33,280 nucleotides of DNA, from positions 1-33,280 of IMG/VR virus record IMGVR_UViG_2700989274_000006, one strand, 5' to 3'. The stretch is from a virus (taxonomy: Duplodnaviria; Heunggongvirae; Uroviricota; Caudoviricetes). Numbering within the stretch: position 1 is the stretch's first letter; each line of letters opens with the position of its first letter. Under the pieces are notes generated by a model that was not told the DNA's origin, searched no databases, and worked only from the letters and a program-made list of their open reading frames with translations. This document shows, in pieces, positions 1-13,316 of the stretch. The translations under genes and the position numbers were made by a program.

Positions 1-1326
1 ATGGCGCTTTCAAGACAAAAATTTACCTTCGAAAGACTTCGCAGATTCACCTTACCGGAAGGGAAAAAACAAACTTTTCTTTGGGATGCAGATGTAACAA
101 CCCTGGCATGCCGAGCAACTAGCGGAGCAAAAGCCTTTGTATTCCAAAGCGTATATGCGGGGAAAACCCTTCGCATGACTATTGGCAATATTAACGACTG
201 GAAGATTGATGATGCGAGAGCCGAGGCAAGACGGATACAAACATTGATCGATACAGGGATAGATCCACGAGTTGCTAAGGCTGTAAAAATCGCAGAAGCA
301 GAATCCCTGCAGGCAGAATCACGTAAAACAAAAGTGACTTTCTCCGTCGCCTGGGAAGACTATCTTCAAGAATTGAGAACCGGTATCAGTGCAAAAACTA
401 AACGCCCATATTCTACTCGATACATTGCCGATCACATTAACTTGTCCAGTCGTGGAGGCGAAAGTAAAAAAAGAGGCCAAGGCCCGACTTCGGCTGGACC
501 ATTGGCTAGTTTGCTCAACCTGCCGTTATCGGAGCTAACCCCAGATTACATAGCAGCGTGGCTGAGTACAGAAAGGCAAAATAGACCTACCGTCACTGCT
601 CACGCTTATCGCCTACTACGTGCTTTCATCAAATGGAGTAATTATCAGAAAAAATATCAAGGGATCATTCCTGGCGATCTGGCACAAGATTACAACGTAA
701 GAAAAATGGTTCCCGTGTCAGCGAGTAAAGCTGATGATTGCCTGCAAAAGGAACAACTAAAAAGCTGGTTTAGTGCCGTGCGTAGCCTCAATAATCCTAT
801 TGCATCGGCCTATCTCCAAGTACTTTTGCTCACTGGTGCTCGGCGTGAAGAAATTGCGTCGCTTCGCTGGTCAGACGTAGATTTCAAATGGTCAAGCATG
901 CGAATTAAAGACAAGATCGAAGGTGAACGTATCATCCCTCTCACTCCTTATGTTTCTGAATTGTTAAATGTACTAGCGCAATCCCCAAATTCTGACGTAA
1001 ATAAGGAGGGTTGGGTTTTCAGAAGTAACAGTAAAAGTGGCAAAATTATTGAGCCGCGTTCAGCGCACAACAGAGCGTTAGTGCTGGCTGAGTTACCACA
1101 TATCAGCCTTCACGGTTTACGTCGTAGTTTTGGTACTTTGGCCGAGTGGGTTGAAGTTCCCACTGGTATTGTTGCTCAAATTATGGGACACAAACCCAGC
1201 GCTCTTGCCGAAAAACACTATCGCCGTCGTCCGTTAGATCTGTTACGAAAATGGCACGAGAAAATTGAGACATGGATCTTAAATGAAGCAGGTATTACCA
1301 TAAAAAACAACGTTGATATGCGTTGA
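1..1326 (+). CDS. Tyrosine site-specific integrase (P4/CP4-57-like island integrase)
   Basis: 441 aa ORF; conserved catalytic-domain motifs LLLTGARREEIASLRWSDVDF, HGLRRSF and a C-terminal HxxY-type region (MGHKPSALAEKHY); gene starts at window position 1, so the att site or tRNA target would lie upstream, outside the window. Confidence 0.9.
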   Translation: MALSRQKFTFERLRRFTLPEGKKQTFLWDADVTTLACRATSGAKAFVFQSVYAGKTLRMTIGNINDWKIDDARAEARRIQTLIDTGIDPRVAKAVKIAEAESLQAESRKTKVTFSVAWEDYLQELRTGISAKTKRPYSTRYIADHINLSSRGGESKKRGQGPTSAGPLASLLNLPLSELTPDYIAAWLSTERQNRPTVTAHAYRLLRAFIKWSNYQKKYQGIIPGDLAQDYNVRKMVPVSASKADDCLQKEQLKSWFSAVRSLNNPIASAYLQVLLLTGARREEIASLRWSDVDFKWSSMRIKDKIEGERIIPLTPYVSELLNVLAQSPNSDVNKEGWVFRSNSKSGKIIEPRSAHNRALVLAELPHISLHGLRRSFGTLAEWVEVPTGIVAQIMGHKPSALAEKHYRRRPLDLLRKWHEKIETWILNEAGITIKNNVDMR

Positions 1327-1442
1327 TTCCATTAAAAATCAACATATTACAAAATATCATCAACTATTGATCAAGATAGATTTTCATGTATCGTAATACA
1401 CAGTTTAGTCAATGATACAGCAACTACACAGGAGATAAGCCA

Positions 1443-1883
1443 ATGGCAACCCCAGCAACTGTATCCATAGAACCCACTCTGGCAGCTATCAGAGCTCGCT
1501 GGTGTATTAATTCAAGTAAAACAACTCAATCCTTTAACGATCCTGCGTCCATGGAAGAGGTTGTCGAGTATCTCAAAGGAACATACTCAGCTCTTCGCAA
1601 GTCTGTCGCATGCGCCAAACTGAAAATTTTACATCTTAAACAAAGAATGCAAAATGCTACTAACTTTCTCGCGCGTCTGATGTCATGTAAAAATCAGGCA
1701 TCCAGATCGCATCACAGTACGGCTAAATCAGCTAAAAGTGCCTTATCATCAGATTCAGGTGATGGTAGTGACCCCGACCCCGAGCCCGAAACGTTTCCTT
1801 CTGCCTTCATTACTACCCCTACTAATTCAATAATGCTTAAAGCTTTCTTTGCCAATATCTCAATCACTGAGGTGGCAAAATGA
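1443..1883 (+). CDS. Hypothetical protein with acidic Ser/Asp/Pro-rich low-complexity tail
   Basis: 146 aa ORF preceded by AGGAGA about 8 nt upstream; its stop overlaps the alpA-like start (ATGA); no recognisable domain. Confidence 0.4.
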   Translation: MATPATVSIEPTLAAIRARWCINSSKTTQSFNDPASMEEVVEYLKGTYSALRKSVACAKLKILHLKQRMQNATNFLARLMSCKNQASRSHHSTAKSAKSALSSDSGDGSDPDPEPETFPSAFITTPTNSIMLKAFFANISITEVAK

Positions 1884-2104
1884 GCGCATTCAAACTCCCG
1901 GATACATCTCAATCACAGCTCATTTCAACAGCTGAGTTAGCTAAAATCATTAGCTACAAATCTCAAACCATTCGTAAATGGCTTTGTCAGGACAAATTGC
2001 CTGAGGGGCTACCTCGCCCAAAACAAATCAATGGCCGCCATTACTGGTTACGTAAAGATGTCCTCGATTTTATAGATACATTTTCTGTACGAGAAAGTCT
2101 GTAA
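1880..2104 (+). CDS. alpA: AlpA-family phage/island transcriptional regulator (excisionase-like HTH)
   Basis: 74 aa; pattern LISTAELAKIISYKSQTIRKWLCQDKLPEGLPRPKQINGRHYWLRKDVLDFI matches the AlpA winged-HTH family; its position just downstream of the integrase is as in CP4-57. Confidence 0.65.
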   Translation: MSAFKLPDTSQSQLISTAELAKIISYKSQTIRKWLCQDKLPEGLPRPKQINGRHYWLRKDVLDFIDTFSVRESL

Positions 2105-2222
2105 TAAATTACAGATTTAATTTTATTGATTTATAGCGATGTTGCCCCGAGAAAAATGGGGCAACACTGAGAAATTTCAGATAGTAGTTTTATATTGAGA
2201 TAACAAAGAGGTTTCCTTAAAA

Positions 2223-3077
2223 ATGTCTAATAGTGTTACTAATTTTGAGATGAGCAGCGTTCTACCAGGAAAAAAACCTTGTCAAGGCAAAAACAATGAG
2301 TCACAGGTAGTACAGACTACTCCCATAAAAAAACACTCAGTCACGTTCAAAAATCAATCTTCATTAGGAGTAATTGATCATTATGCCAGACTAACAAATA
2401 AATCTCACTCTTCCGTAATAGCGGAAGTTGTGGATTTGGCTATCCCTATATTAGAAAAATGCAATCGTCATAACTGGTCAATAAATGAAATAAAAAATGA
2501 CCTGTTAAAGTTCTCTATAAAAGAAAGCATCAATCGAAGCCGAGGTAAAACAGAAGTAACTCTGGAAGAGTACTGTTCGTTAATCTGGAAAACGAACATC
2601 ATGAGTCCATTAAAAATCCCCATTGCAGATTACTTTCAACTGAACGCTAATGATGAATTCATGGGGAAAGATGAAAAAACAGTTATACGTGAAAGGCTAT
2701 CCTCGCTGAGGGAAAATTACGATATGGAAAAAGCCATTTACATTTACAATCAACGACATTTTAATGTAAAGCATCAAAGTGTCTCAGGATATTCAAACAT
2801 TATTCTTATTCATAGAACAACCTTTGAGGATTATTACTTTGATGTCGGGCAGACTCTACTCTTGTCAACATCCCAATTAATTATATTCGGGATAAATGAA
2901 GTTCTTAGAAGAAAGGGGATTGTTATGCCTTATCCGGTTGTTTGTTGGATTGATATTTACCATGTCAATGAGATGGTGGTTATGCTGCCAGTGATCCGTA
3001 AAACAGATGTTTCCAACCGTGTTAATGCACCGGATGACATCATTATAAACCCATACTCACAGGAGAGCAGAACCTAA
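2223..3077 (+). CDS. Hypothetical protein with N-terminal ribbon-helix-helix-like segment
   Basis: 284 aa ORF in a markedly AT-rich stretch; the segment KHSVTFKNQSSLGVIDHYARLTNKSHSSVIAEVVDLAI has the beta-strand plus two-helix pattern of Arc/CopG RHH domains; C-terminal ~200 aa unassigned. Confidence 0.45.
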   Translation: MSNSVTNFEMSSVLPGKKPCQGKNNESQVVQTTPIKKHSVTFKNQSSLGVIDHYARLTNKSHSSVIAEVVDLAIPILEKCNRHNWSINEIKNDLLKFSIKESINRSRGKTEVTLEEYCSLIWKTNIMSPLKIPIADYFQLNANDEFMGKDEKTVIRERLSSLRENYDMEKAIYIYNQRHFNVKHQSVSGYSNIILIHRTTFEDYYFDVGQTLLLSTSQLIIFGINEVLRRKGIVMPYPVVCWIDIYHVNEMVVMLPVIRKTDVSNRVNAPDDIIINPYSQESRT

Positions 3078-3103
3078 GAGGTAACAAAGAAGGACAAACA
3101 ATT

Positions 3104-3802
3104 ATGAGAGGTAAAATACTACTTTACCACTCAAAGTATCGCTGGCAATCACGCTCTATTTTTGGTTATTTTTTATACAAAATAACATTATTCAGGTATC
3201 AAAAAATAATTTATGACACCGGAGTGCATCAGATGCGTTCATTTTTTTACACCATATGCAGTAGCGAACAGCAAGAAAGCATTACAGATCATCACTCACT
3301 TGCTGAGATATGCCAAAAATTTAATATTCTACCTGAACATGTTGTGATCGAGCAGGTAGATATTAAAGAGGTTGTTTCAGAGCAACGTTTACTCAGACAA
3401 TTGATTCATCATGAAATGAACCGGCAGGACACGCTTGTCATTCCAGATCTAAGCTGTCTTGGCAGAACTGTGGAGGACTTACAGAATATTTTATTTTTTT
3501 GCCTTCAAAAAGAAATGTTTATCTACAGCTACCATCCAGCTTCAAGGATAGAGCCTTCTGCTGAAAGTTGCTTGTCTTTTTTGATTGCTCGTCAGGATAC
3601 GATTGACATTCACAATCTGAAATCAACTAAAAGCCGATATCGACATGTTAAGAAGAAATTAGGACGAAAGGAGGGAAGCAAATACCGACGTGATATCACA
3701 ATACTTAAGAAAGGTGGATTTACTCAGGCTGAGATTGCAAAGAAATTGAGTATCAGTTTATCGACTGTGAAGCGGCACTGGAATAACGGAATCATCGGTT
3801 AA
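3104..3802 (+). CDS. Serine-recombinase (resolvase)-like protein with C-terminal HTH, probably catalytically degenerate
   Basis: Segment YTICSSEQQ ... LVIPDLSCLGR aligns with resolvase YARVSTSQQ ... LVKKLDRLGR but lacks the Arg equivalents (R8 to I, D67-R68 to S-C); C-terminal HTH GFTQAEIAKKLSISLSTVKRH; alternative start at 3233 (MRSFFYT, GGAG upstream). Confidence 0.5.
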   Translation: MRGKILLYHSKYRWQSRSIFGYFLYKITLFRYQKIIYDTGVHQMRSFFYTICSSEQQESITDHHSLAEICQKFNILPEHVVIEQVDIKEVVSEQRLLRQLIHHEMNRQDTLVIPDLSCLGRTVEDLQNILFFCLQKEMFIYSYHPASRIEPSAESCLSFLIARQDTIDIHNLKSTKSRYRHVKKKLGRKEGSKYRRDITILKKGGFTQAEIAKKLSISLSTVKRHWNNGIIG

Positions 3803-3904
3803 TTCCAGAAGCTAATTGCAGAGTAACTTTTTAACAGCCATCACAGGCTGGGGCTACCTTCGTCTCAAATTTAGATGTTGGATAGGTATTATAATGGCAT
3901 TGTG

Positions 3905-4063
3905 TACTCTTACTACCTGTATTCACCAGTAAGAGTAGTAATCAGATCAGTATATCCGTACTAAGATCTGATACCAGTATATACCGACAACAGTGACCAG
4001 GAATAGCCCTGCCTGTATGGCATCCCTGTACGGTCTGCTATAGACCGTAGGACCAAATACAGG
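3905..4063. promoter_or_regulatory. Cluster of inverted repeats immediately upstream of the YfjJ-like gene (candidate operator or origin-like structure)
   Basis: 9-bp IR tactcttac (3905-3913) / gtaagagta (3929-3937); nested dyad cctgtat (4012-4018) ... tacggtc (4029-4035) / gaccgta (4043-4049) ... atacagg (4057-4063); direct repeats of cagtatat(a/c)ccg at 3948-3990. Confidence 0.3.
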
Positions 4064-4071
4064 TATATATT

Positions 4072-4698
4072 ATGAAAACATATCAAGGTACTCATGGAGT
4101 ACATATCCTCGAATATCAGATCAAGATTAAAAAATTATTATGTTATTTGACTAACCGTTACCCCAGGTTAACGGCGGTACGTGTCGATCTGCATTATCCG
4201 AAGATAGTCGATAACGGAGACAATATCTGCTGTTTCCCTAATCTTGAACCAGGGGTGATATCCCGAATGCGTGATTCCCTCAGAGCTAAACTGGAGGCTG
4301 ACCGTACCCGTAAGGAGCGTGAAGGTAAACGCATCTACCGTTGCCCTTTATTTATTATATGGGCGAAAGAGTATTCTGAATCAGGTAAATGCCACTATCA
4401 CATTTGCCTGTTGTTCAACAAAGACGCTTACTACCACCTCGGGGATTACGATCAGCACGATAACCTGAGAGGGATGATTACGGGAGCGTGGTACAGCGCC
4501 CTGAGACTGGAGAGAGACGATCACCCAGGTCTGGTCCATTTTCCTGATAACTGTAAGTACGTGCTGGATACCAATAATGCTGACTTCCAGCATAACTACC
4601 AAGCGCTGTTAACCCGACTGGATTACCTCACCAAAGTCGAAAGCAAAGTGTTTGGTGAAGGAGACCGTAACTTCGGCTGTAGCCAAATCGATCTGTAA
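4072..4698 (+). CDS. YfjJ/YagK-like protein (inovirus Gp2-type family)
   Basis: 208 aa; recalled similarity to the CP4-57 YfjJ / CP4-6 YagK family (PRLTAVRVDLHYP, CHYHICLLFNKDAYYHLG); position after int-alpA is as in CP4-57; family assignment is from memory, not a search. Confidence 0.5.
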   Translation: MKTYQGTHGVHILEYQIKIKKLLCYLTNRYPRLTAVRVDLHYPKIVDNGDNICCFPNLEPGVISRMRDSLRAKLEADRTRKEREGKRIYRCPLFIIWAKEYSESGKCHYHICLLFNKDAYYHLGDYDQHDNLRGMITGAWYSALRLERDDHPGLVHFPDNCKYVLDTNNADFQHNYQALLTRLDYLTKVESKVFGEGDRNFGCSQIDL

Positions 4699-4707
4699 GT
4701 CGGCAAT

Positions 4708-4737
4708 GGCCTTCTCTTTGTGGGAAGGCCTATTTTA
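4708..4737 (+). terminator. Rho-independent terminator downstream of the YfjJ-like gene
   Basis: GGCCTTC (4708-4714), 9-nt loop, GAAGGCC (4724-4730), followed by TATTTTA. Confidence 0.55.
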
Positions 4738-4785
4738 CGTCAGAGTTCAATAATATAACCAGCAGATAACCTGCCCCCAGGATCT

Positions 4786-5577
4786 TCAATTTGGTGTGAT
4801 TTTTCCACTTTCAGTCATGATAGCGATTGCTTCGTCGATAGTCTGTGTTGTAAAGAGCGAGTTTTCCCTACAGTCCTTGCGAATCACCTTCCTGTTTTTT
4901 TGCACAGAAATGTTCTCGCACCAAGCTAATGTTTCGGCGGCATGCTTTTCTTCCATGCTAATGTCCAAAAAAGCGAGGCGGCTATCAAGGGATTGCATAT
5001 CCTCATTGACAATTGAAGGACTGGATTCTAGGAGGTTCAAACGGTTTTCAACATCGGCAACCTTGCCTTTCACCTGTGAGACGTCTTCCACCAATTTTTC
5101 ATGTCTGTGGATAGCATCAGCAAGTGCTCGTGAGTTTTGGGCCAATATTTCAGCCATTTGCGCGAGGGCAGATCCTTTTGCTTCTGGCGGTGGTGGATAT
5201 ACTCCATGTTTAGTCAACGATGGTATGACCTCATGGAATAACCATTTTTGAAAGCGCTTACCAGCCGCGCTTCGGTCACTCGACATAACTCGATACAAAC
5301 CTGGTTGGGTGACGAAGATCTCTTTCTGACCTTCAAAAACACCATTTTCAGCATCTGTAGTAATATACTCATCGGGGTCAAGAGCCTGTAATTGCGCCCT
5401 GATTATTCCAGCCATCGATTTTACTGTGTAATCAGCGTTGATTTCTCTATTTTCTTTATTCAGCGTGATTAAAACATCTCGTAGTGAGATATATAGAATC
5501 TCACCAAGTATCAATGTTCTTAGATCACTTTCACCAGTCTCACCACGGTAACATATCTTGGTCAGGTTACTATTCAT
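4786..5577 (-). CDS. BRO-N domain protein (phage antirepressor-like)
   Basis: 263 aa; N-terminal Bro-N signature QPGLYRVMSSDRSAAGKRFQKWLFHEVIPSLTKHGVY; coiled-coil-like C-terminus; GAGGA 4-5 nt upstream of the ATG. Confidence 0.6.
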   Translation of the reverse strand: MNSNLTKICYRGETGESDLRTLILGEILYISLRDVLITLNKENREINADYTVKSMAGIIRAQLQALDPDEYITTDAENGVFEGQKEIFVTQPGLYRVMSSDRSAAGKRFQKWLFHEVIPSLTKHGVYPPPPEAKGSALAQMAEILAQNSRALADAIHRHEKLVEDVSQVKGKVADVENRLNLLESSPSIVNEDMQSLDSRLAFLDISMEEKHAAETLAWCENISVQKNRKVIRKDCRENSLFTTQTIDEAIAIMTESGKITPN

Positions 5578-5632
5578 TGATCCTCACATCGCAAAGTATA
5601 GGCACATTCAAATCAGTATCTTTTTTCCTGTG

Positions 5633-5665
5633 CTGTTCTGAGGTGAGTATATCACCTCAGAACAG
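5633..5665. repeat. Perfect 14-bp inverted repeat with 5-nt loop
   Basis: ctgttctgaggtga (5633-5646) / gtata / tcacctcagaacag (5652-5665); lies between the 3' end of the methyltransferase-helicase-T5orf172 operon and the BRO-N gene start; no U-tract on either strand. Confidence 0.5.
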
Positions 5666-5691
5666 GTGGCCAAATTCGGTGTGTCACTTCA

Positions 5692-6870
5692 CTATGCCTT
5701 CACCAGTTTCGCAGACATGGGGTCATAAACATACCCAATGATGCTACCATCCTTAATACGTGCAACAGCCTCATCGATAACGAATAACGGAACGAGAAAC
5801 CATTCCTCGGGCTGTACTGGATGGCCGAAACGGTCGTTAATGGTAATGTTAAGCCTTGCGGGTGCAAACAACCTGTGAAACAGGTTTTCCATCCGGGTGC
5901 GGTTGATGCCTGCAAGCTTGTATGAAGCTACTACCTCGACCTTCGCTAACAGATAGGTGGAATCGTGTTCCGCATTGGCAATACGCGCCTCTACTTTGCC
6001 GCCAGTCACTCCAATCTTGTGAATGACATCACGATGTTCAGCTACATAAGGGTTATCAGATAGCGAACGCAACACATAAATGGTGCCACTTTCTAGATCG
6101 CTCTCTTCTAGAGCATCGCTGAATAAAGGCCCCATGTCTGGATCGGTAATTCGGCGTGCTGTTTCGTCTTTATACAAAGCACGAACCAGTGACAGCCGAA
6201 GTAGGTTGCTTTCCGTACCATTCGAGTAAATGACACGCAGTCGAGCATCTTTCTTCCCCTGTGGCGAATCGAACTCTTCACCTTCCTCAGCCACATAAGC
6301 CGTTTGACCATCCAGGATGAACCAATGGCCCACTTCAATCGTTGCATACTGTCCAAAAGGTCGGGTCACTCTTAACCCTGAACTTAGATCACTGCGCACC
6401 TGTTCAAATAGCGGTTTGAATGTATCAAAATCCTCGCACGGCTTGCGATCCGCGATCCCTTGTACAGCACGCTTTTCGGAGCTAGCACGAACATGACGCA
6501 AGACTGTGATATCGTCCTCGCTGGTAACATCCGCCAGTTCGGCAGCCAAATTATCGATATCGATAAATTCGTCCGCTGACTCCGCTCCCTCCCCCCCTCC
6601 GGCCAACAAGCCCTGATGATCCAGCGGCTCTAGCAAGGCACGGCAGTCTGGGAGACTGCGTAGCCGGTCGAGCCGCACTGCATAGAGGCGCTCGAAGATC
6701 TCACGATCTTCGCCGTGTTGCGGCGCACGTCCATGTTGGTCAGCGAAGCGCTGGATTTCCTCAAAACCTGCGATGATGCGTTCCTCGCTGGCTGGACGTC
6801 CTTTTTTCTTCTCCGGTGGTGCAAATTCGGCAAGTTCTGCCGCCAAATCGTCTAAATCAGAATTACTCAT
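5692..6870 (-). CDS. T5orf172 (GIY-YIG-like) domain protein, third gene of the candidate defense operon
   Basis: C-terminal motifs GTIYVLRS, HKIGVTGGKVEARI, MENLFHRLF, EEWF match the T5orf172 family pattern; preferred start at 6870 (MSNSDLDD, GGAGGG 5 nt upstream, 8-nt overlap with the helicase stop); the longest ORF extends to 6936. Confidence 0.6.
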   Translation of the reverse strand: MSNSDLDDLAAELAEFAPPEKKKGRPASEERIIAGFEEIQRFADQHGRAPQHGEDREIFERLYAVRLDRLRSLPDCRALLEPLDHQGLLAGGGEGAESADEFIDIDNLAAELADVTSEDDITVLRHVRASSEKRAVQGIADRKPCEDFDTFKPLFEQVRSDLSSGLRVTRPFGQYATIEVGHWFILDGQTAYVAEEGEEFDSPQGKKDARLRVIYSNGTESNLLRLSLVRALYKDETARRITDPDMGPLFSDALEESDLESGTIYVLRSLSDNPYVAEHRDVIHKIGVTGGKVEARIANAEHDSTYLLAKVEVVASYKLAGINRTRMENLFHRLFAPARLNITINDRFGHPVQPEEWFLVPLFVIDEAVARIKDGSIIGYVYDPMSAKLVKA

Positions 6871-8908
6871 AATGTCCCTCCGCCCTAAAACGCATAAACG
6901 CGGCTGCACCTTCTGCAAGGTGCTTTTCCCAGGCATCCGGCGAAGTTAACGATGGGAGGCGTCCACGTTCACGTTTGAATTCAGCAGCACGCTTGGCGAT
7001 CACTTTGGCATCTTCAGGCGTGATCGAGGTACGCTTGGCCGAGATGGCCGCCGCGACCTGCTTCAAGCTATCTTCGCTCATTGTCTTAGCAAGGATGGCG
7101 TAGGCTTCACCAAAGGGATTGATGCGGTCGATAAGATCTATGTCTAAATCGCGTACGTCCATCGCAAAGCGACGCACTCCGTCAATAAGGGCAGTATTGA
7201 GCGTCCCATCGTTCTCGCCGTTGACAATACGCTTAGCCTGCTGCGTGAGATTAAGGGCGGCAATAGCGTGCTGACGCACAGCCTCCTGATCTTCAGCGCC
7301 AAGTTCAGGGTACTTTTCTTTGATGATCTTCCCCATACGAACCTGTGTTAATTCTTCAGGAATGAGCTCTTCGTCGAACAGTCCACGTTCGATGGCGGGC
7401 TTATCTTGCACAAAAGCCGCGATCACTTCATTTAAATCTTCCTGGCAGATGCGTGCCGCCTCTTTGCTCCTGGGCTCGGCAAGTCCCTTAATCTCGATTT
7501 GATACGTCCCTGTCTGCTCATTAACACCAAAATTGCAGTTATCCGGGTCATACCCTCCTTCACCATAATCAAAACCTGGGGTCGGGCCGCTTTCTGGGTT
7601 CTTAGGCTTGAACTCGAAGCGCGGAGCCAATACTTGCTCCATCAGCAGGCTTGCCGCGATGGCTTTCAAGGTATCGTTGACTGCCTCGGTGACTGCCCCC
7701 TCTACAGCATCCGGCTCGGCGATCAGGTTAGTAAACCTTGCGCGGGTTTTACCCGGCGCGTCGCGAGTGGCGCGACCGATGATCTGCACGATCTCAGTCA
7801 GGCTGGCACGGTAACCAACGGTCAACGCATGTTCGCACCAGATCCAGTCGAAACCTTCCTTCGCCATACCAAGTGCAATAATGATGTCCACATAATCACG
7901 GTCTGTCTTCATTTCTGCAGCACGGAGACTTTCCTGAATCTTGCCTTGGCTGGTTGGGTCCACCAGGTCAGCAATACGTAACACGCGTCCATCGAGGCAT
8001 TTGACTAGCTGAAAACCAGTCACAGGATCCGCTCCTTGCCAATCGCCAAGCTCGCCGAGAATGTGCTCCACCTCTTTGATTTTATCCTTCGTGCTCTCGC
8101 GCGAATTGACGTTGGGAATATGGATAATGGTCTTCTTGTCAGGATCGAGTACATTGAGGATGTCATCGACGTAGGAGCCACTGTAGAAGAAGTAGCCGAT
8201 ATCGAGTTGCTTGAGGTATTCGTAGCCGTTAAGTTGTTCGTAGTAGGTGTAGGTGACGGTATCGAACCTGGACTCATCCTGAGGAGCCAACACGGCCTCC
8301 GCATCACCCCGGAAGTAGGATCCGGTCATGGCAACGATGTGCGTCTTGTCCCGCGCGATAAACTGCCCCAGCTGCTGACCAAGCTTATTATCCGGGTTAG
8401 CTGACACATGGTGGAATTCATCGACCGCGATCAGGCGATCGTCAAACGCTTCTATACCGTAGGCATCGACCGCGAAGCGAAAGGTTGCGTGTGTGCAAAC
8501 AAGCACCTTGTCACTACTTTCAAGAAAAGAGCCAAAAGATCTTACCTTGCCACCGTTGTCGTTACCGGGCGCGTTGCACAGGTTCCACTTAGGTTCGACA
8601 TGCCAATCAGTCCAGAATCCAAACTGCGATAGCGGTTCATCGTTGAAGCTCGCGCCGATAGATTTTTCCGGCACAACGATGATTGCCTGTTTAATCCCTT
8701 GATTTTCGAGTTTGTCGAGTGCGACGAACATCAGAGCACGACTCTTACCGGAGGCGGGCGGCGACTTGATGAGAAGATATTGTTCTCCGCGCTTCTCATA
8801 GGCCCTTTCTTGCATAGGCCGCATCCCAAGAGCATTAGCCTTGGTCGATGCTCCGCTGCGTGAGTAGGTAACGGAAACGGACGGTACTGATTTAATCTTG
8901 TTGCTCAT
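6863..8908 (-). CDS. SF2 DExH-box helicase/translocase (type III restriction Res-like ATPase)
   Basis: 681 aa; Walker A SPPASGKS, motif II VDEFHH, motif III MTGS, motif VI QIIGRATR; ~250 aa C-terminal extension of unknown function; start overlaps the methyltransferase stop (ATGA). Confidence 0.8.
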   Translation of the reverse strand: MSNKIKSVPSVSVTYSRSGASTKANALGMRPMQERAYEKRGEQYLLIKSPPASGKSRALMFVALDKLENQGIKQAIIVVPEKSIGASFNDEPLSQFGFWTDWHVEPKWNLCNAPGNDNGGKVRSFGSFLESSDKVLVCTHATFRFAVDAYGIEAFDDRLIAVDEFHHVSANPDNKLGQQLGQFIARDKTHIVAMTGSYFRGDAEAVLAPQDESRFDTVTYTYYEQLNGYEYLKQLDIGYFFYSGSYVDDILNVLDPDKKTIIHIPNVNSRESTKDKIKEVEHILGELGDWQGADPVTGFQLVKCLDGRVLRIADLVDPTSQGKIQESLRAAEMKTDRDYVDIIIALGMAKEGFDWIWCEHALTVGYRASLTEIVQIIGRATRDAPGKTRARFTNLIAEPDAVEGAVTEAVNDTLKAIAASLLMEQVLAPRFEFKPKNPESGPTPGFDYGEGGYDPDNCNFGVNEQTGTYQIEIKGLAEPRSKEAARICQEDLNEVIAAFVQDKPAIERGLFDEELIPEELTQVRMGKIIKEKYPELGAEDQEAVRQHAIAALNLTQQAKRIVNGENDGTLNTALIDGVRRFAMDVRDLDIDLIDRINPFGEAYAILAKTMSEDSLKQVAAAISAKRTSITPEDAKVIAKRAAEFKRERGRLPSLTSPDAWEKHLAEGAAAFMRFRAEGHYE

Positions 8909-11712
8909 GCATTAGTTCTCACTTTACGCTTCTTGCCTTTGGCCGGTGCAGCAGAAGCGGCCATCTTTATATAAAGATCAAATAGCTTTTCAAGCCGCTC
9001 TGTATCATTCTTAAAGCGACGGCCGATGTAGATGCGCTCCAGTACTTCATCATTGCGATCATGCGCAGCCCGCAGATCAGTAGGCATGTTAGCAGGATCG
9101 TATAGGTCCGCGATGGTCGCGGGAAAATGATGCTCACGCGCCAGAAGTATGTCCTCCGCGCAGCGTGTGAGGTCAGCCTTGTTTTTTTCTGTGAGTTTTG
9201 GTACTGGGAAGGTGTTCCAGCCGAGGGTGTTAGAGTAGCGGTAGCGTGTTTCCAATTTTCCGCAGATGGTGGCGATCCAAACCAGGTGTAGACGAGATGC
9301 AATGAGCGCAAGATTCCAGAGCGGAGCGTCGTAGAGAGCAAAGGCGAGGTTACTGACTACCGAATGATTATCAATCAGTCCAACAGGAAGATACTCGCGC
9401 CCTTCCGATGAAACCCCCGGTAGAATCAGCGTGTGCTTGCCACCGTGATACATTTCGCGAAACTGATGAGCCCGTGATGCTAACTCATTCGTACCAGCAT
9501 CTTTACTTTTGAGCCGCATTTCCCGAACGCCATCAATCCGACCCCGAATAGACGCAATCTCCAAAGCTTGCGGCAATTTTACATCAGGGATCCAGAGGCA
9601 CTTACGTACTACTCCGCGAATAAACTCGGCAGAACCATAGATGCGCCGAAGAAATGTCTCTTCATCCTGCTTGCTCAAACCGAGCGAAACCGCGTCATCC
9701 GCCGATAACAAAAGATTTCCCCCATCGACGGGCATGTTGCCAAAAGACATATCCGGCAGACCCGATATGCTCTTGCGCTGGCCCTCGACTACAACATCCT
9801 CACCAACACTCAGATAGGGCGTGATGTTTGTCGCCTCGCGTACAGTAGTTTGGCCATTGCGGTCCAAGTCGTAAAGTAGCCTTGTCTTACTCACATCCGT
9901 AGATAGGCCGACGATAGCGACTGTTACACCCGCGTTGTGTGCAGCAAGGTTCGTCCATTTGAAGCTGGAGTGCGCGAAGCGAATGTGGGAGCCACATTTG
10001 AAAATTGCTGGCCACAGGATAGGAACAATTCGGCCTTGACAGATAGAGTTGGTGCTAACAAAAGCCGAATCCGTTGGTGTGGCTTGCGCGTAGGCAGCAG
10101 CTTTCATGAACCAACCACCAACATAATCGATTTGTTTAGACGAAATACCATAAGGTTCAAATACCGAAGCCAAATCCGCTTTCTGCTCTTTAGTCTGCGT
10201 TTGGCTACCTTTGTAAGGTGGGTTACCACAGATGTATGTCTCCCCACCTTCGTTCTGAAAGCCAATCTCTGCTTGACCGAGAGGCGTCTCAAAGAGGTTA
10301 TCTGCCTGCAACTTCACGCCAATTCCGGACGGAGGGCAAACGCTCAACCAATCAATCCGCAATGCGTTGCCACATGTAATCCAATTATCATTACGCAGAG
10401 GAAGAAACTCGGCCAGTGCAAGTTTTAGTCCCCGGTACACCACATCGCACTGATACTCAGCAATAACTAGCGCGAGACGGGCAATCTCCGCAGGGAAATC
10501 TCGTATTTCGATCCCGCGAAAGTTGGTAAGAGGGATGTCAGAGGCATTATCCATCTCGCCACGTCGTCGATTAATCTCGGCCTCGATGGCTCGCATTTCC
10601 TTGTACGCAATCACTAAGAAGTTGCCAGATCCACATGCTGGGTCGAATACGCGGATTCGGGCCATACGCTTGCGCAGATTGAGCAGCATGCGCGGATTGT
10701 CACCGGCTTCATCCAGTTTCGCCCGCAGTTCGTCGAGGAATAGTGGGTTAAGCACCTTGAGTATATTGGGGACACTAGTGTAATGCATTCCCAACTCACC
10801 ACGCTCTTCGTCTTCGGTAATGGCCTGAATCATCGAGCCGAATATGTCTGGGTTGATTTTGGTCCAATCCAGATTGCCAACATGTAGAAGATAGGATCGC
10901 GCAATACGGCTGAAGCGCGGTACCTCCTCACTTCCCGAGAAAAGAGCGCCGTTTACATAAGGAAACTCAGCAGCCCAACGCGGGATACCGACAACACTTC
11001 GCTCATCGCGTGGGGTGTTCATTGCACGAAACAACGTGGCGATGACCTCGTGCAAATTAGAAGCGTCGCGCTCACTCATCTGCGCAATAGTGTCAGTAAA
11101 GCGCCCCTTGCCTATAAATATGTCAGTGTCTTCGGCGAAAAAGCAGAAAATTAGACGCGCCATGAACTTGTTCATGTCATGACGACGCCCCGAAGTACCC
11201 CATTCAGGATTGTCTTTTAACAGTTCGACGTACAGGCGGTTCAAACGGCTAGTAGCACGGATGTCAAAGGCGTCTTCGCTGATCTGCCGAACAGTGCTGA
11301 TACCTGCCAATGGCAAAAAGAAGCCGAAGTGATCGGGAAAGTCTTTAAAGGCACAAGCCACAGTCTGACCACTGTTGAGGTCCTCGGCTTCAAAGTATTT
11401 GCCGTCCGTGGCAAGGATGAATTTCGCCTTGGCCTTGCCTGTTGCCGGGCTGGCCTTAAGTGCAGCCAGCATCTGTGTGACTTGGCCCCCTTCACTGGCC
11501 AGAATGTGGATGTTGTTTGTCTGAAGAACACCACCCAAGTCGGACTTATTCGATGCCCCGGCGCGCAGACGTTTGATGGTCGTTTCCTTGTTACCAAAGG
11601 CTTCAAGAAAAGCATAAGGAAACTCTATAGGATCAAAGGGTTGTTCCGCAAGATCCGTGATGGCTTGCTCAATTTCTACGGCGTTCATTTGCGTACAGTT
11701 CTCCATTGGCAT
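8905..11712 (-). CDS. MmeI-family (type IIG/IIL-like, YeeA-like) N6-adenine DNA methyltransferase, apparently without endonuclease motif
   Basis: 935 aa; SAM motif I FDPACGSGNFLV, catalytic motif IV GNPPY; further MmeI-family blocks MARLIFCFFAEDTDIF, LGMHYTSVPNILKVLNPLFLDEL; no PD-(D/E)xK seen in the N-terminal ~120 aa. Confidence 0.85.
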   Translation of the reverse strand: MPMENCTQMNAVEIEQAITDLAEQPFDPIEFPYAFLEAFGNKETTIKRLRAGASNKSDLGGVLQTNNIHILASEGGQVTQMLAALKASPATGKAKAKFILATDGKYFEAEDLNSGQTVACAFKDFPDHFGFFLPLAGISTVRQISEDAFDIRATSRLNRLYVELLKDNPEWGTSGRRHDMNKFMARLIFCFFAEDTDIFIGKGRFTDTIAQMSERDASNLHEVIATLFRAMNTPRDERSVVGIPRWAAEFPYVNGALFSGSEEVPRFSRIARSYLLHVGNLDWTKINPDIFGSMIQAITEDEERGELGMHYTSVPNILKVLNPLFLDELRAKLDEAGDNPRMLLNLRKRMARIRVFDPACGSGNFLVIAYKEMRAIEAEINRRRGEMDNASDIPLTNFRGIEIRDFPAEIARLALVIAEYQCDVVYRGLKLALAEFLPLRNDNWITCGNALRIDWLSVCPPSGIGVKLQADNLFETPLGQAEIGFQNEGGETYICGNPPYKGSQTQTKEQKADLASVFEPYGISSKQIDYVGGWFMKAAAYAQATPTDSAFVSTNSICQGRIVPILWPAIFKCGSHIRFAHSSFKWTNLAAHNAGVTVAIVGLSTDVSKTRLLYDLDRNGQTTVREATNITPYLSVGEDVVVEGQRKSISGLPDMSFGNMPVDGGNLLLSADDAVSLGLSKQDEETFLRRIYGSAEFIRGVVRKCLWIPDVKLPQALEIASIRGRIDGVREMRLKSKDAGTNELASRAHQFREMYHGGKHTLILPGVSSEGREYLPVGLIDNHSVVSNLAFALYDAPLWNLALIASRLHLVWIATICGKLETRYRYSNTLGWNTFPVPKLTEKNKADLTRCAEDILLAREHHFPATIADLYDPANMPTDLRAAHDRNDEVLERIYIGRRFKNDTERLEKLFDLYIKMAASAAPAKGKKRKVRTNA

Positions 11713-11993: not shown

Positions 11994-13316
11994 TTAAAAC
12001 GTATTAAGGTTGCACCGAATATGGTTTTCCCCGCTGACCCTGACCCGATTGACTGTCCAGTCAGCTATGACGTCAAGCACATGACGAAGGTAGCTTTCTG
12101 GATCCACGCCGTTTAGTTTGCACGTCCCGATCAGACTGTACATCAGCGCTACACGCTCACCTCCGTGGTCTGAGCCGAAGAACAGCCAGTTTTTTCTCCC
12201 CAAACTGACCATCCGCAGCGCATTTTCAGCGATGTTGTTATCGGCTTCTGTCCAGCCATTGCCTGCATAGTGCGTCAGGGCCGGCCACTGGTTAAGGGCG
12301 TACGCGAACGCTTTCGCCAGCTCTGAGTGTCGTGACAGGGTGTTCATCTTTTCACGCAGCCAGCTTTCCAGGGATTTCAGCAGCGGTTTCGCTTTCTGCT
12401 GACGTTCAGCAAGACGTTGCTCCGCCGGCATTCCCCTTATTTCCGCCCCGATGGCATACAACCCGCCGATACGCTTCAGGGCATCCTCCGTCAGCGCCGA
12501 CGGCGTGCGGGCGTACACATCGTGGATTTTACGGCGGGCGTGAGCCCAGCAGGCGGCTTCCGTTATCTGGCCACCGCGGTACAACTCGTTGAATCCTGCA
12601 TACGCATCCGCCTGCAGCACTCCCCTGAAGCCGGCAAGATGGGTCTGCGGGTGGATGGCTTTTCTGTCCGGGCTGTAAGCGAACCACACCGCCGGTGCGA
12701 CTGCTGACCCGGCGTTGCGGTCATCACGAACGTACTTCCACAATCGCCCGGACTTCGTCTTCTTATTGCCCGACAGCAGCATCTGGACCGGGGTATCATC
12801 GACATGGAGTTTGCCGTCGCTCAGGACATAGCCCCGAAGCGCCTCCTCCAGCGGTGACAGCAGCCTGCAGCATGCATCCACCCAGCCCGACAGGAGGGAG
12901 CGGCTCAGTTCCACACCCTGGCGGCTATATATTTCAGACTGGCGGTACAGCGGGGTATGCTCTGCATACTTTGAGCCCAGTACCCGGGCCAGCAGCCCCG
13001 CTCCGGCGATACTCCGCTCGATGGGACGTGAAGGCGCGGGGGCCTGCACGATAGCGTCGCATTTTGTACAGGCGTGTTTTTCCCGCACGGTCCGGATAAC
13101 CCGGAAGGCGCTGCGCATCAGCTCCAGCTGTTCAGCAGTATCTTCACCCAGCCAGCGCAGTGAATCGCCACAGTCCGGGCAGCATGATGCCGCCGACAAC
13201 AGCCGTTTTTCGTCACGAGGGAGTGATTCGGGGAACGGTTTACGGGTGCGGGTCTGGCGAAGCGACCACGCTCCAGCCGTTTGGTCAGCAGACACAGCCT
13301 GTCGCCGGTAGACCAC
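11994..13316 (-). CDS. tnpC: IS66-family transposase TnpC (N-terminus likely truncated)
   Basis: 440 aa; conserved IS66 TnpC blocks LPRDEK, CPDCGDSLRWLGEDTAEQLEL, IVQAPAPSRPIERSIAG, HTPLYRQSEI; only ~26 aa precede the LPR motif whereas family members usually carry a longer N-terminal zipper region. Confidence 0.8.
   Translation of the reverse strand: MVYRRQAVSADQTAGAWSLRQTRTRKPFPESLPRDEKRLLSAASCCPDCGDSLRWLGEDTAEQLELMRSAFRVIRTVREKHACTKCDAIVQAPAPSRPIERSIAGAGLLARVLGSKYAEHTPLYRQSEIYSRQGVELSRSLLSGWVDACCRLLSPLEEALRGYVLSDGKLHVDDTPVQMLLSGNKKTKSGRLWKYVRDDRNAGSAVAPAVWFAYSPDRKAIHPQTHLAGFRGVLQADAYAGFNELYRGGQITEAACWAHARRKIHDVYARTPSALTEDALKRIGGLYAIGAEIRGMPAEQRLAERQQKAKPLLKSLESWLREKMNTLSRHSELAKAFAYALNQWPALTHYAGNGWTEADNNIAENALRMVSLGRKNWLFFGSDHGGERVALMYSLIGTCKLNGVDPESYLRHVLDVIADWTVNRVRVSGENHIRCNLNTF

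Follow-up and report, generated by a model that had tools for sequence, protein, structure and literature searches.

The AT-rich yagM-yagL stretch of a CP4-6-type island encodes a ribbon-helix-helix-like protein and a probably non-catalytic resolvase derivative in a conserved backbone with yagK

We analyzed a viral DNA record, IMGVR_UViG_2700989274_000006, over its positions 1 to 33,280 (hereafter the window, 33,280 nt in all), and within it an AT-rich stretch at positions 2223-3802. The list of open reading frames (ORFs) and genome matches identify this stretch as yagM and yagL of a CP4-6-type island: two ORFs lie on the + strand, at 2223-3077 (284 aa) and 3104-3802 (232 aa), preceded by intF (truncated at position 1), yagN and ykgV, an AlpA-like helix-turn-helix (HTH) gene, and followed by yagK. 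The stretch is 100% identical to Escherichia coli ECC-1470 and 98.9% identical to K-12, and 368 of 5426 complete E. coli genomes, K-12 among them, contain the 2-kb yagM-yagL stretch. Its G+C content is 36.6%; the window as a whole has 48.9%, and intF, yagN-ykgV and yagK on either side have 0.43-0.45, so the AT-richness remarked on in the first-pass annotation is real. Both genes are already known, named K-12 y-genes; a 2024 survey of the y-ome still counts yagK, yagL, yagM, ykgV and yagN as uncharacterised (PMC11551758). What is new is YagL as a very probably non-catalytic variant of a known enzyme family, placed in a conserved and unstudied island backbone.

Published data from K-12 describe a silenced locus. 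H-NS binds the yagM-yagL region (PMC3946193), the Rho-dependent terminators 5' of yagM and yagL are among the strongest measured, and yagL rises about 66-fold in a rho mutant (PMC9160355). Insertion sequence (IS) elements have inserted near yagM and yagL in some strains. The features of the two genes are as follows.

2223-3077, + strand: yagM coding sequence, 284 aa, family PF27701/UCP007319 (ORF, annotation, PF27701 matches of homologues)
2328-2468, + strand: likely ribbon-helix-helix region of YagM, residues 36-82 (profile matches in the PDB, AlphaFold2 secondary structure)
2469-3074, + strand: C-terminal domain of YagM, about 200 aa, fold unmatched (family alignments)
3078-3232, + strand: yagM-yagL spacer, with a probably spurious 5' extension of yagL (3104-3232) and a GGAG Shine-Dalgarno sequence (spacer alignment)
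3233-3802, + strand: yagL coding sequence as revised, 189 aa, catalytically degenerate small serine recombinase
3233-3562, + strand: resolvase-like N-domain of YagL, residues 1-110, without Arg8, Asp67 and Arg68 (residue mapping)
3563-3658, + strand: E-helix-equivalent segment of YagL, residues 111-142, its most constrained part (hhalign to the resolvase E-helix, substitution rates)
3659-3799, + strand: GR-arm (LGRKEGSKY) and HTH (recognition helix ISLSTVKRHW) of YagL, residues 143-189 (invariant columns, HTH family matches)

The first-pass annotation had taken the whole ORF at 3104-3802 as the second gene; the frame exists, but its start is probably ATG 3233. Nearly all YagL homologues in a collection of 5.8 billion proteins are 184-190 aa long and begin at the equivalent of M44 of the 232-aa ORF, and a GGAG Shine-Dalgarno sequence precedes ATG 3233. 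The yagM-yagL spacer measures 120-160 nt across loci (155 nt here, G+C 0.318), and its sole conserved block is GACACCGGAGT, just 5' of ATG 3233; in the rest, close relatives differ by indels of 1 and 2 nt, and other relatives have stop codons. Because of the homologue lengths, the GGAG sequence and these non-triplet indels and stops, we consider that the first 43 codons of annotated yagL are probably not translated. The 232-aa form was used in the published biochemistry, in which the "HTH 187-232" fragment is numbered on it (PMC11587861). Automated names for YagL are also inconsistent. PGAP labels the ECC-1470 allele (E1470_RS01565) an "ECF-type sigma factor" and the protein of other strains a "recombinase family protein". 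The former name arises from a PF07638 (Sigma70_ECF) match just over threshold (23.1 bits, cut-off 21.1) that covers only profile positions 132-173 of 185, a region-4-like HTH. A sigma factor assignment was therefore rejected, since the match is limited to that HTH and the N-domain has a resolvase fold.

Profile-profile alignment matches YagL end to end with the gamma-delta, Tn3, Hin and Gin proteins (residues 1-184 to 1-180, probability 96.4%, E 1e-9), the gamma-delta reference being identical in sequence to PDB 1GDT. An independent hidden Markov model alignment to Tn3 resolvase gives the same D67/R68/R71 (LDRLGR) register. The profile was needed for this result, as a single-sequence search of the PDB with YagL returned only noise. 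The AlphaFold2 model (23 homologues) has a mean predicted local distance difference test score (pLDDT) of 73.5, with residues 1-110 and the HTH at 150-185 confident and the linker at 111-142 poor in the monomer (<50). YagL thus shares with the gamma-delta/Tn3 resolvases and the Hin/Gin invertases (PF00239 plus PF02796) the catalytic-domain fold, the E-helix region, the GR arm and the C-terminal HTH, in the same order, and its family also conserves Tyr6, Gly70 and the GD..L.V hydrophobic core of small serine recombinases.

In contrast, the active site is not conserved. The motifs YTICSSEQQ and DLSCLGR, singled out in the first-pass annotation, are both present in YagL, and alignment with the catalytic residues of Hin and gamma-delta places Ile at the Arg8 position, Ser at Asp67 and Cys at Arg68 in this allele, with Tyr6, Ser10, Gln14, Gly70 and Arg71 unchanged. 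Among 39 aligned family members, some of them redundant copies, none has Arg at position 8, Asp at 67 or Arg at 68 (0/39 each). Tyr6 is kept in all 39, Arg71 is variable (Arg in 24/39), and Ser10 survives in about a quarter (11/39), being replaced elsewhere by K, Q, A, I, P, L, T, H, V or E. Family models reflect this divergence: Pfam PF00239 scores 20.1 bits against a cut-off of 23.3 and covers only profile positions 50-141, the C-terminal half, and the NCBIfam Mpi invertase model scores 42 bits against a cut-off of 272. Moreover, positions 2050-4150 showed no repeat sets of the res or inversion-site type, which sets the locus apart from those of small serine recombinases. YagL is therefore a resolvase-fold protein that lacks the resolvase active site, and the outcome that would have refuted the first-pass reading, intact catalytic residues in a proper alignment, did not occur. 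The earlier proposal of a pseudo-recombinase with replaced catalytic arginines and a C-terminal HTH holds for Arg8 and Arg68, extends to Asp67, and is strengthened by the family-wide loss of Ser10 and by the HTH-only versions described below. To judge from its sequence, YagL is very probably a non-catalytic resolvase derivative; given the lost residues, it would bind nucleic acid without cutting or rejoining it.

The catalytic domain has disappeared altogether in some relatives. In Kluyvera, Scandinavium, Buttiauxella and Serratia grimesii (loci L019-L024), the yagL slot holds a 58-aa protein consisting of an arm (GRP) and an HTH, its gene (for example L019:4496-4669) still flanked by full-length yagM and yagK. 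These versions have a good Shine-Dalgarno sequence and an invariant HTH and lack any recombinase domain, so the catalytic domain is dispensable for the role of this slot. At the other extreme, an alphaproteobacterial contig from a Citromicrobium metagenome-assembled genome (L027:4343-5206) encodes an apparently intact serine recombinase with YARVST and LDRLGR motifs. It carries the same unusual recognition helix, LSLSTVKRHW, which points to the likely ancestry of YagL, and it is a possible living relative of that ancestor. Where the dead domain is retained, it is constrained. Against Citrobacter and Pseudocitrobacter orthologues (synonymous divergence, dS, of 0.6-0.8), the ratio of nonsynonymous to synonymous substitution rates (dN/dS) of YagL is 0.12-0.16 overall, 0.11-0.19 for residues 1-110 and 0.07-0.12, the lowest, for the E-helix-equivalent segment. 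This pattern fits retention for dimerisation or protein contacts.

The sole experimental paper (PMC11587861) and the databases treat YagL as a predicted recombinase or resolvase. The family-wide catalytic loss, the start probably placed 43 codons too early and the shrinkage to an HTH change both how YagL should be annotated and how it should be re-tested. If the reading is correct, YagL would be a rare case in which a serine recombinase was domesticated to bind nucleic acid without catalysis; a literature search on dead serine recombinases found no precedent for such domestication.

YagM belongs to a small family, with 34 representatives at 50% identity among 1.84 billion proteins. The PF27701 model was absent from the Pfam set used for direct scans of YagM; precomputed PF27701 matches are present in every YagM homologue returned and in the neighbours of YagL homologues. 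In most of the family, the protein has a length of about 250 aa and starts with M-S/P-K-R-I-T-F, directly at the predicted ribbon-helix-helix (RHH) strand, so the first ~33 (33-35) residues of E. coli YagM appear from the alignment to be a lineage-specific extension. A profile of 21 YagM-family N-termini searched against 177,635 PDB sequences returned CopG (E 0.0038) and ParG (E 0.098) as its top two matches, with profile positions 1-38 aligned to CopG 1-37 over its full length. The AlphaFold2 model (14 sequences) gives a strand at 36-41 and helices at 45-58 and 62-82; its overall pLDDT is 38, and only the RHH segment exceeds 60 (about 65). RHH_1, HicB-RHH and DUF6364 recur as sub-threshold matches in YagM homologues, in which none of the Pfam RHH models scored above threshold. 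The family N-terminus shares with the CopG/Arc/MetJ repressors and ParG the strand-helix-helix order and the K/R-R-I-T-F ... SRS-x-V-I pattern. The RHH-like N-terminus reported in the first-pass annotation is thus borne out, and we regard a true RHH domain as likely.

Unlike those repressors, YagM carries, in addition to the E. coli N-terminal extension, a conserved C-terminal domain of about 200 aa with the motifs MGKxE, KAIxIYxxR, GxSN, YxFD, CWIPIYH and IIINPF in family alignments. It had no match in Pfam, NCBIfam, PHROG, PADLOC or the PDB, in keeping with the earlier description of this part as being of unknown function. A likeness of the region to LC8 (dynein light chain; E ~1) was discarded as chance, as it disappeared with a more diverse profile. 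The dN/dS of YagM against Citrobacter and Pseudocitrobacter orthologues is 0.20-0.25.

Comparison of 25 enterobacterial loci from at least 13 genera shows that the two genes do not form a free-standing pair. A YagK/YfjJ-family gene follows yagL in all 25 loci, and a YagM-family gene precedes it in 24. On the 5' side of yagM-yagL-yagK there is usually a P4-type integrase, together with yagN-like and AlpA-like genes, the int/alpA-type pair having been scored in loci where the E. coli IntF and YkgV queries matched and in inspected neighbourhoods, and the order int-yagN-ykgV(alpA-like)-yagM-yagL-yagK is syntenic across Enterobacterales. Intact frames in this fixed order are found in Escherichia, Citrobacter, Salmonella, Enterobacter, Erwinia, Yersinia, Photorhabdus, Pantoea and others. 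The conserved unit is therefore at least yagM-yagL-yagK, which replaces the self-contained two-gene module of the first-pass annotation, and the suggestion of an island-maintenance or regulatory function fits the strict synteny with int, the alpA-like gene and yagK. As side observations, one Photorhabdus khanii genome holds a locus with no detectable yagM (L013) and a second locus (L017:5098-6495) with yagM split into two ORFs and a yagL lacking its HTH end, which has the look of a decaying copy. The remaining features of the backbone in the window are as follows.

4072-4698, + strand: yagK, YagK_YfjJ_C / inovirus Gp2 family, probable HUH Rep-like nickase (PF11726, motifs, synteny)
3819-3830, + strand: conserved 12-nt motif CAGAGTAACTTT, candidate operator or nick site, just 3' of the yagL stop codon
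3870-3895, + strand: yagK promoter (TTTAGA ... TATAAT), with TATAAT or a close variant in most aligned loci
3905-4063, + strand: structured yagK leader, the dyad region of the first-pass annotation, with predicted hairpins 3905-3914/3928-3937, 3941-3948/3965-3972 and 4029-4036/4042-4049 (RNA fold)
1880-2104, + strand: ykgV, AlpA-like HTH_17 gene (PF12728, PHROG "excisionase and transcriptional regulator", synteny)

YagK matches PF11726 with E 8e-66 and has a weak match to REP_ORF2-G2P (PF23343) over residues 80-121. Among YagK/YfjJ homologues, H108 and H110 of an HxH motif (HYHICLLF) and Y185 and K188 of a YxxK motif (YLTK) are invariant. Because of these invariant motifs and its membership in the inovirus Gp2 family, YagK is probably an HUH nickase or Rep protein. 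With these motifs, YagK and YfjJ homologues have the look of active HUH enzymes of the rolling-circle Rep or relaxase type, yet both are listed as uncharacterised.

The yagL-yagK spacer (3803-4071) contains conserved cis elements. The pattern CAGAGT[AT][AG][CT]TTT occurs once per spacer, on the + strand, in 23 of the 25 loci, which span many genera, and the other two (L012 and L013) carry one-mismatch variants. Across the loci, the CAGAGTAAC motif has just one extra copy, outside the spacer and on the - strand, in L007 and L008, which are identical to each other. In the window, CAGAGTAACTTT is present as a single copy, with 0 expected by chance, and the motif is kept even where the remaining spacer has diverged. 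Further downstream, the yagK promoter, detected experimentally in K-12, is reported as a constitutive RpoD promoter (TTTAGA-16-TATAAT) with H-NS binding (PMC3946193). The present strain lacks a "TA" that other E. coli have, so the promoter spacer is 14 nt here, which could weaken the promoter. A consensus promoter scan missed this promoter and returned sites no more numerous than in shuffled sequences.

The yagK leader is predicted to be highly structured. Folding of 3896-4075 as RNA gives -57.7 kcal/mol (z = -4.27), and none of 200 shuffles was as stable. An outer stem (4012-4018/4057-4063) pairs over the Shine-Dalgarno-like AGG of yagK, and 12 loci maintain the UACGG...CCGUA hairpin, G-U variants included. 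No Rfam family matched within 1300-4800. In Yersinia and Photorhabdus, a hairpin of different sequence occupies a similar position in the leader. The sole strongly conserved non-coding block of the loci is the one that adjoins yagK. Upstream, no operator conserved across lineages was found in the ykgV-yagM spacer, where the alignment was uninformative, partly from failed start-finding. A perfect 7-bp inverted repeat (TTGCCCC-N9-GGGGCAA, 2143-2165) lies in that spacer, restricted to the E. coli lineage and with no T-tract after it.

We propose, with a probability of roughly 0.5, that yagM and yagL encode non-catalytic DNA-binding regulators or accessory factors for YagK. A specific functional link of YagM and YagL to YagK is put forward more tentatively. 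In the resting state, H-NS and Rho would keep the whole module silent. When this silencing is lifted and the island excises by means of IntF and the AlpA-like YkgV, YagM would act as an RHH dimer, and YagL, equipped with its arm and HTH, would dimerise via the relic catalytic/E-helix domain. These dimers would bind the yagL-yagK region with its CAGAGTAACTTT motif, yagK promoter and hairpin-rich leader, and when bound might control yagK expression and/or help load YagK at an origin located there. YagK, as a putative HUH Rep-like nickase, would then replicate or mobilise the excised island. This scheme draws on the analogy of RHH and HTH accessory proteins that serve relaxases and rolling-circle initiators. 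TraY, NikA and TrwA are RHH accessory proteins of relaxosomes, and yagM likewise lies upstream of a probable HUH nickase gene, the usual genomic place of such proteins, a likeness of setting that we infer by analogy.

A bolder version of this proposal, which we regard as speculative and improbable, would make YagM, YagL and YagK a complex, so far undescribed, that initiates the rolling-circle replication or the mobilisation of defence islands of the CP4 type, with the dead recombinase as a sequence- or structure-specific nucleic-acid-binding subunit. YagL may then act on the hairpin-rich yagK leader or origin as RNA or single-stranded DNA, which is conceivable because double-stranded RNA binding has been published. 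If true, such a complex would explain the movement of supposedly "cryptic" islands.

Several points weigh against YagM and YagL as accessory factors or regulators for YagK. We infer, rather than observe, their ties to DNA sites, to one another and to YagK. The RHH assignment leans on an E-value of 0.0038, sub-threshold Pfam matches and a model with a pLDDT of 38. The Rep assignment of YagK consists of motifs, a Pfam family and the weak PF23343 match, and a profile search of the PDB with YagK gave no Rep match. Furthermore, the 12-nt motif is single-copy and has no obvious dyad symmetry, which is unusual for a resolvase-type dimer site. Ser10 and Arg71 are still present in the E. coli allele, so that residual or unusual chemistry is conceivable from the sequence. 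Finally, the sole published biochemistry of YagL concerns RNA binding and ribozyme refolding, not DNA (PMC11587861).

The alternative that survives best, unlikely as we judge it, casts YagM as the master repressor or sensor of the island, with an RHH head and a sensing C-terminal domain like NikR or Stl and with YagL as co-regulator, and makes int/alpA-driven excision the target instead of YagK. The architecture of an RHH followed by a large C-terminal domain is consistent with this, as are the position of yagM directly after the alpA-like gene and the annotation of AlpA in the K-12 island CP4-57 as a transcriptional activator beside intA. However, no conserved operator was found across lineages in the ykgV-yagM spacer, with its uninformative alignment, or elsewhere in the loci, the one strongly conserved non-coding block lies next to yagK, and the C-terminal domain has no recognisable ligand-binding fold.

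It is also possible, with rather low probability, that YagL is primarily a general host RNA chaperone or RNA binder, its island context and YagM being incidental. In the published work, purified YagL binds single-stranded and double-stranded RNA with micromolar affinity and makes the Tetrahymena ribozyme refold faster in vitro, its HTH fragment 187-232, which is the GR-arm and HTH segment of the revised protein, binds RNA, and deletion of yagL alters probe accessibility in vivo (PMC11587861). In these micromolar RNA binding and ribozyme refolding activities, it resembles the moonlighting nucleic-acid chaperones StpA and CspA. However, its fold is unrelated to theirs, and it is encoded on an island in the accessory genome and silenced; the high conservation of its recognition helix hints at a specific target. 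The gene is present in just 368 of 5426 complete E. coli genomes and is silenced by Rho and H-NS, and its fixed place beside yagM and yagK in island backbones would not be expected of a housekeeping chaperone. Basic HTH proteins often bind RNA non-specifically in the micromolar range, the assayed 232-aa form has 43 probably non-native residues, and the invariant recognition helix and the nearby conserved DNA motif point to sequence-specific recognition. The published activity is genuine biochemistry but difficult to square, as a main function, with an accessory, silenced gene fixed in synteny; it could be a non-specific effect of a basic HTH, or a real interaction with the structured yagK leader.

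A toxin-antitoxin (TA) or abortive-infection module, with an RHH antitoxin and a downstream toxin, had been raised as a possibility in the first-pass annotation and is now very improbable. Like type II TA systems with RHH antitoxins, yagM-yagL has an RHH-type upstream protein and adjacent same-strand genes on a mobile element, here a defence-rich island, and the N-terminus of YagM resembles antitoxin DNA-binding domains, with weak HicB-RHH matches in its homologues. In contrast to such systems, the "antitoxin" is much larger, the genes do not overlap and are separated by a long spacer of 155 nt, and the linkage to yagK is obligatory, so that the conserved unit takes in a third gene. YagL is a recombinase-fold HTH protein and no known toxin, and its gene can shrink to a bare HTH. 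Neither protein matched a toxin or defence family in Pfam, NCBIfam, PHROG or PADLOC, and PADLOC gave nothing meaningful for YagL and YagK. In addition, YagL has been purified from E. coli and the yagL deletion is viable, toxicity going unmentioned in the available part of that report (PMC11587861). Overall, the earlier interpretation stands for the RHH-like protein, the dead resolvase and the regulatory module, and falls for the two-gene unit and the TA pair.

Two further readings are scarcely credible. A working site-specific recombinase of the island, whether resolvase or invertase, is what PGAP- and EcoCyc-style names ("recombinase family protein", "resolvase-like catalytic domain") imply for YagL, and Tyr6, Ser10, Gln14 and Arg71 are all kept in this allele; against this, the Arg8 to Ile, Asp67 to Ser and Arg68 to Cys changes are reversed in none of the 39 relatives, Ser10 is mostly lost among them, the Pfam Resolvase match is sub-threshold and confined to the C-terminal half of the domain, HTH-only orthologues fill the same slot, and the neighbourhood showed no sets of res-like repeats, whether inverted or direct. 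Functionless decay as cryptic-prophage remnants, for which the name of the island, AT-rich and transcriptionally silenced genes, nearby IS insertions in some strains and the Photorhabdus locus with split yagM and truncated yagL might be cited, is contradicted by dN/dS of 0.12-0.25 at dS 0.6-1.0 and by intact frames in fixed order across many enterobacterial genera.

Preceded by an integrase and an AlpA-like gene, the fixed trio of yagM, yagL and yagK makes up the backbone of islands with anti-phage cargo, and it bears on how P4-integrase defence islands are regulated, replicated or mobilised. The cargo 3' of yagK is variable, with QatABCD in Photorhabdus and a 1230-aa DEAD/ResIII protein in Yersinia. 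In the window, 4786-11712 on the - strand holds a BRO-N gene and then a set of genes that overlap one another and encode a GIY-YIG/T5orf172 nuclease, a DEAD helicase and an MmeI-family methyltransferase/target recognition domain protein of 935 aa. This cargo looks like a defence system; PADLOC found no match in it beyond a weak one to PbeA. CP4-57 of K-12 (L030, 2755500-2766500) follows the same plan, with a P4-type integrase, an AlpA-like HTH protein, a middle module, a YagK/YfjJ protein and opposite-strand defence cargo, AbpAB, in the order intA-(yfjH)-alpA-yfjI-yfjJ-abpBA. Its middle slot holds a single DUF3987 protein of 469 aa, YfjI, whereas the CP4-6-type island studied here holds YagM and YagL. 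The two appear to be alternative, non-homologous solutions for one slot, and the position after the YagK/YfjJ gene looks like a hotspot for defence cargo.

The first 12 kb of the window are identical to E. coli ECC-1470, and this match ends at about position 12043. ARAGORN found no tRNA in the window that would mark the island end. An IS66 transposase lies at 11994-13316, and beyond it, up to 33280, are lambdoid late genes for lysozyme, gpA terminase, portal, a ClpP-capsid fusion, tail tube and tape measure.

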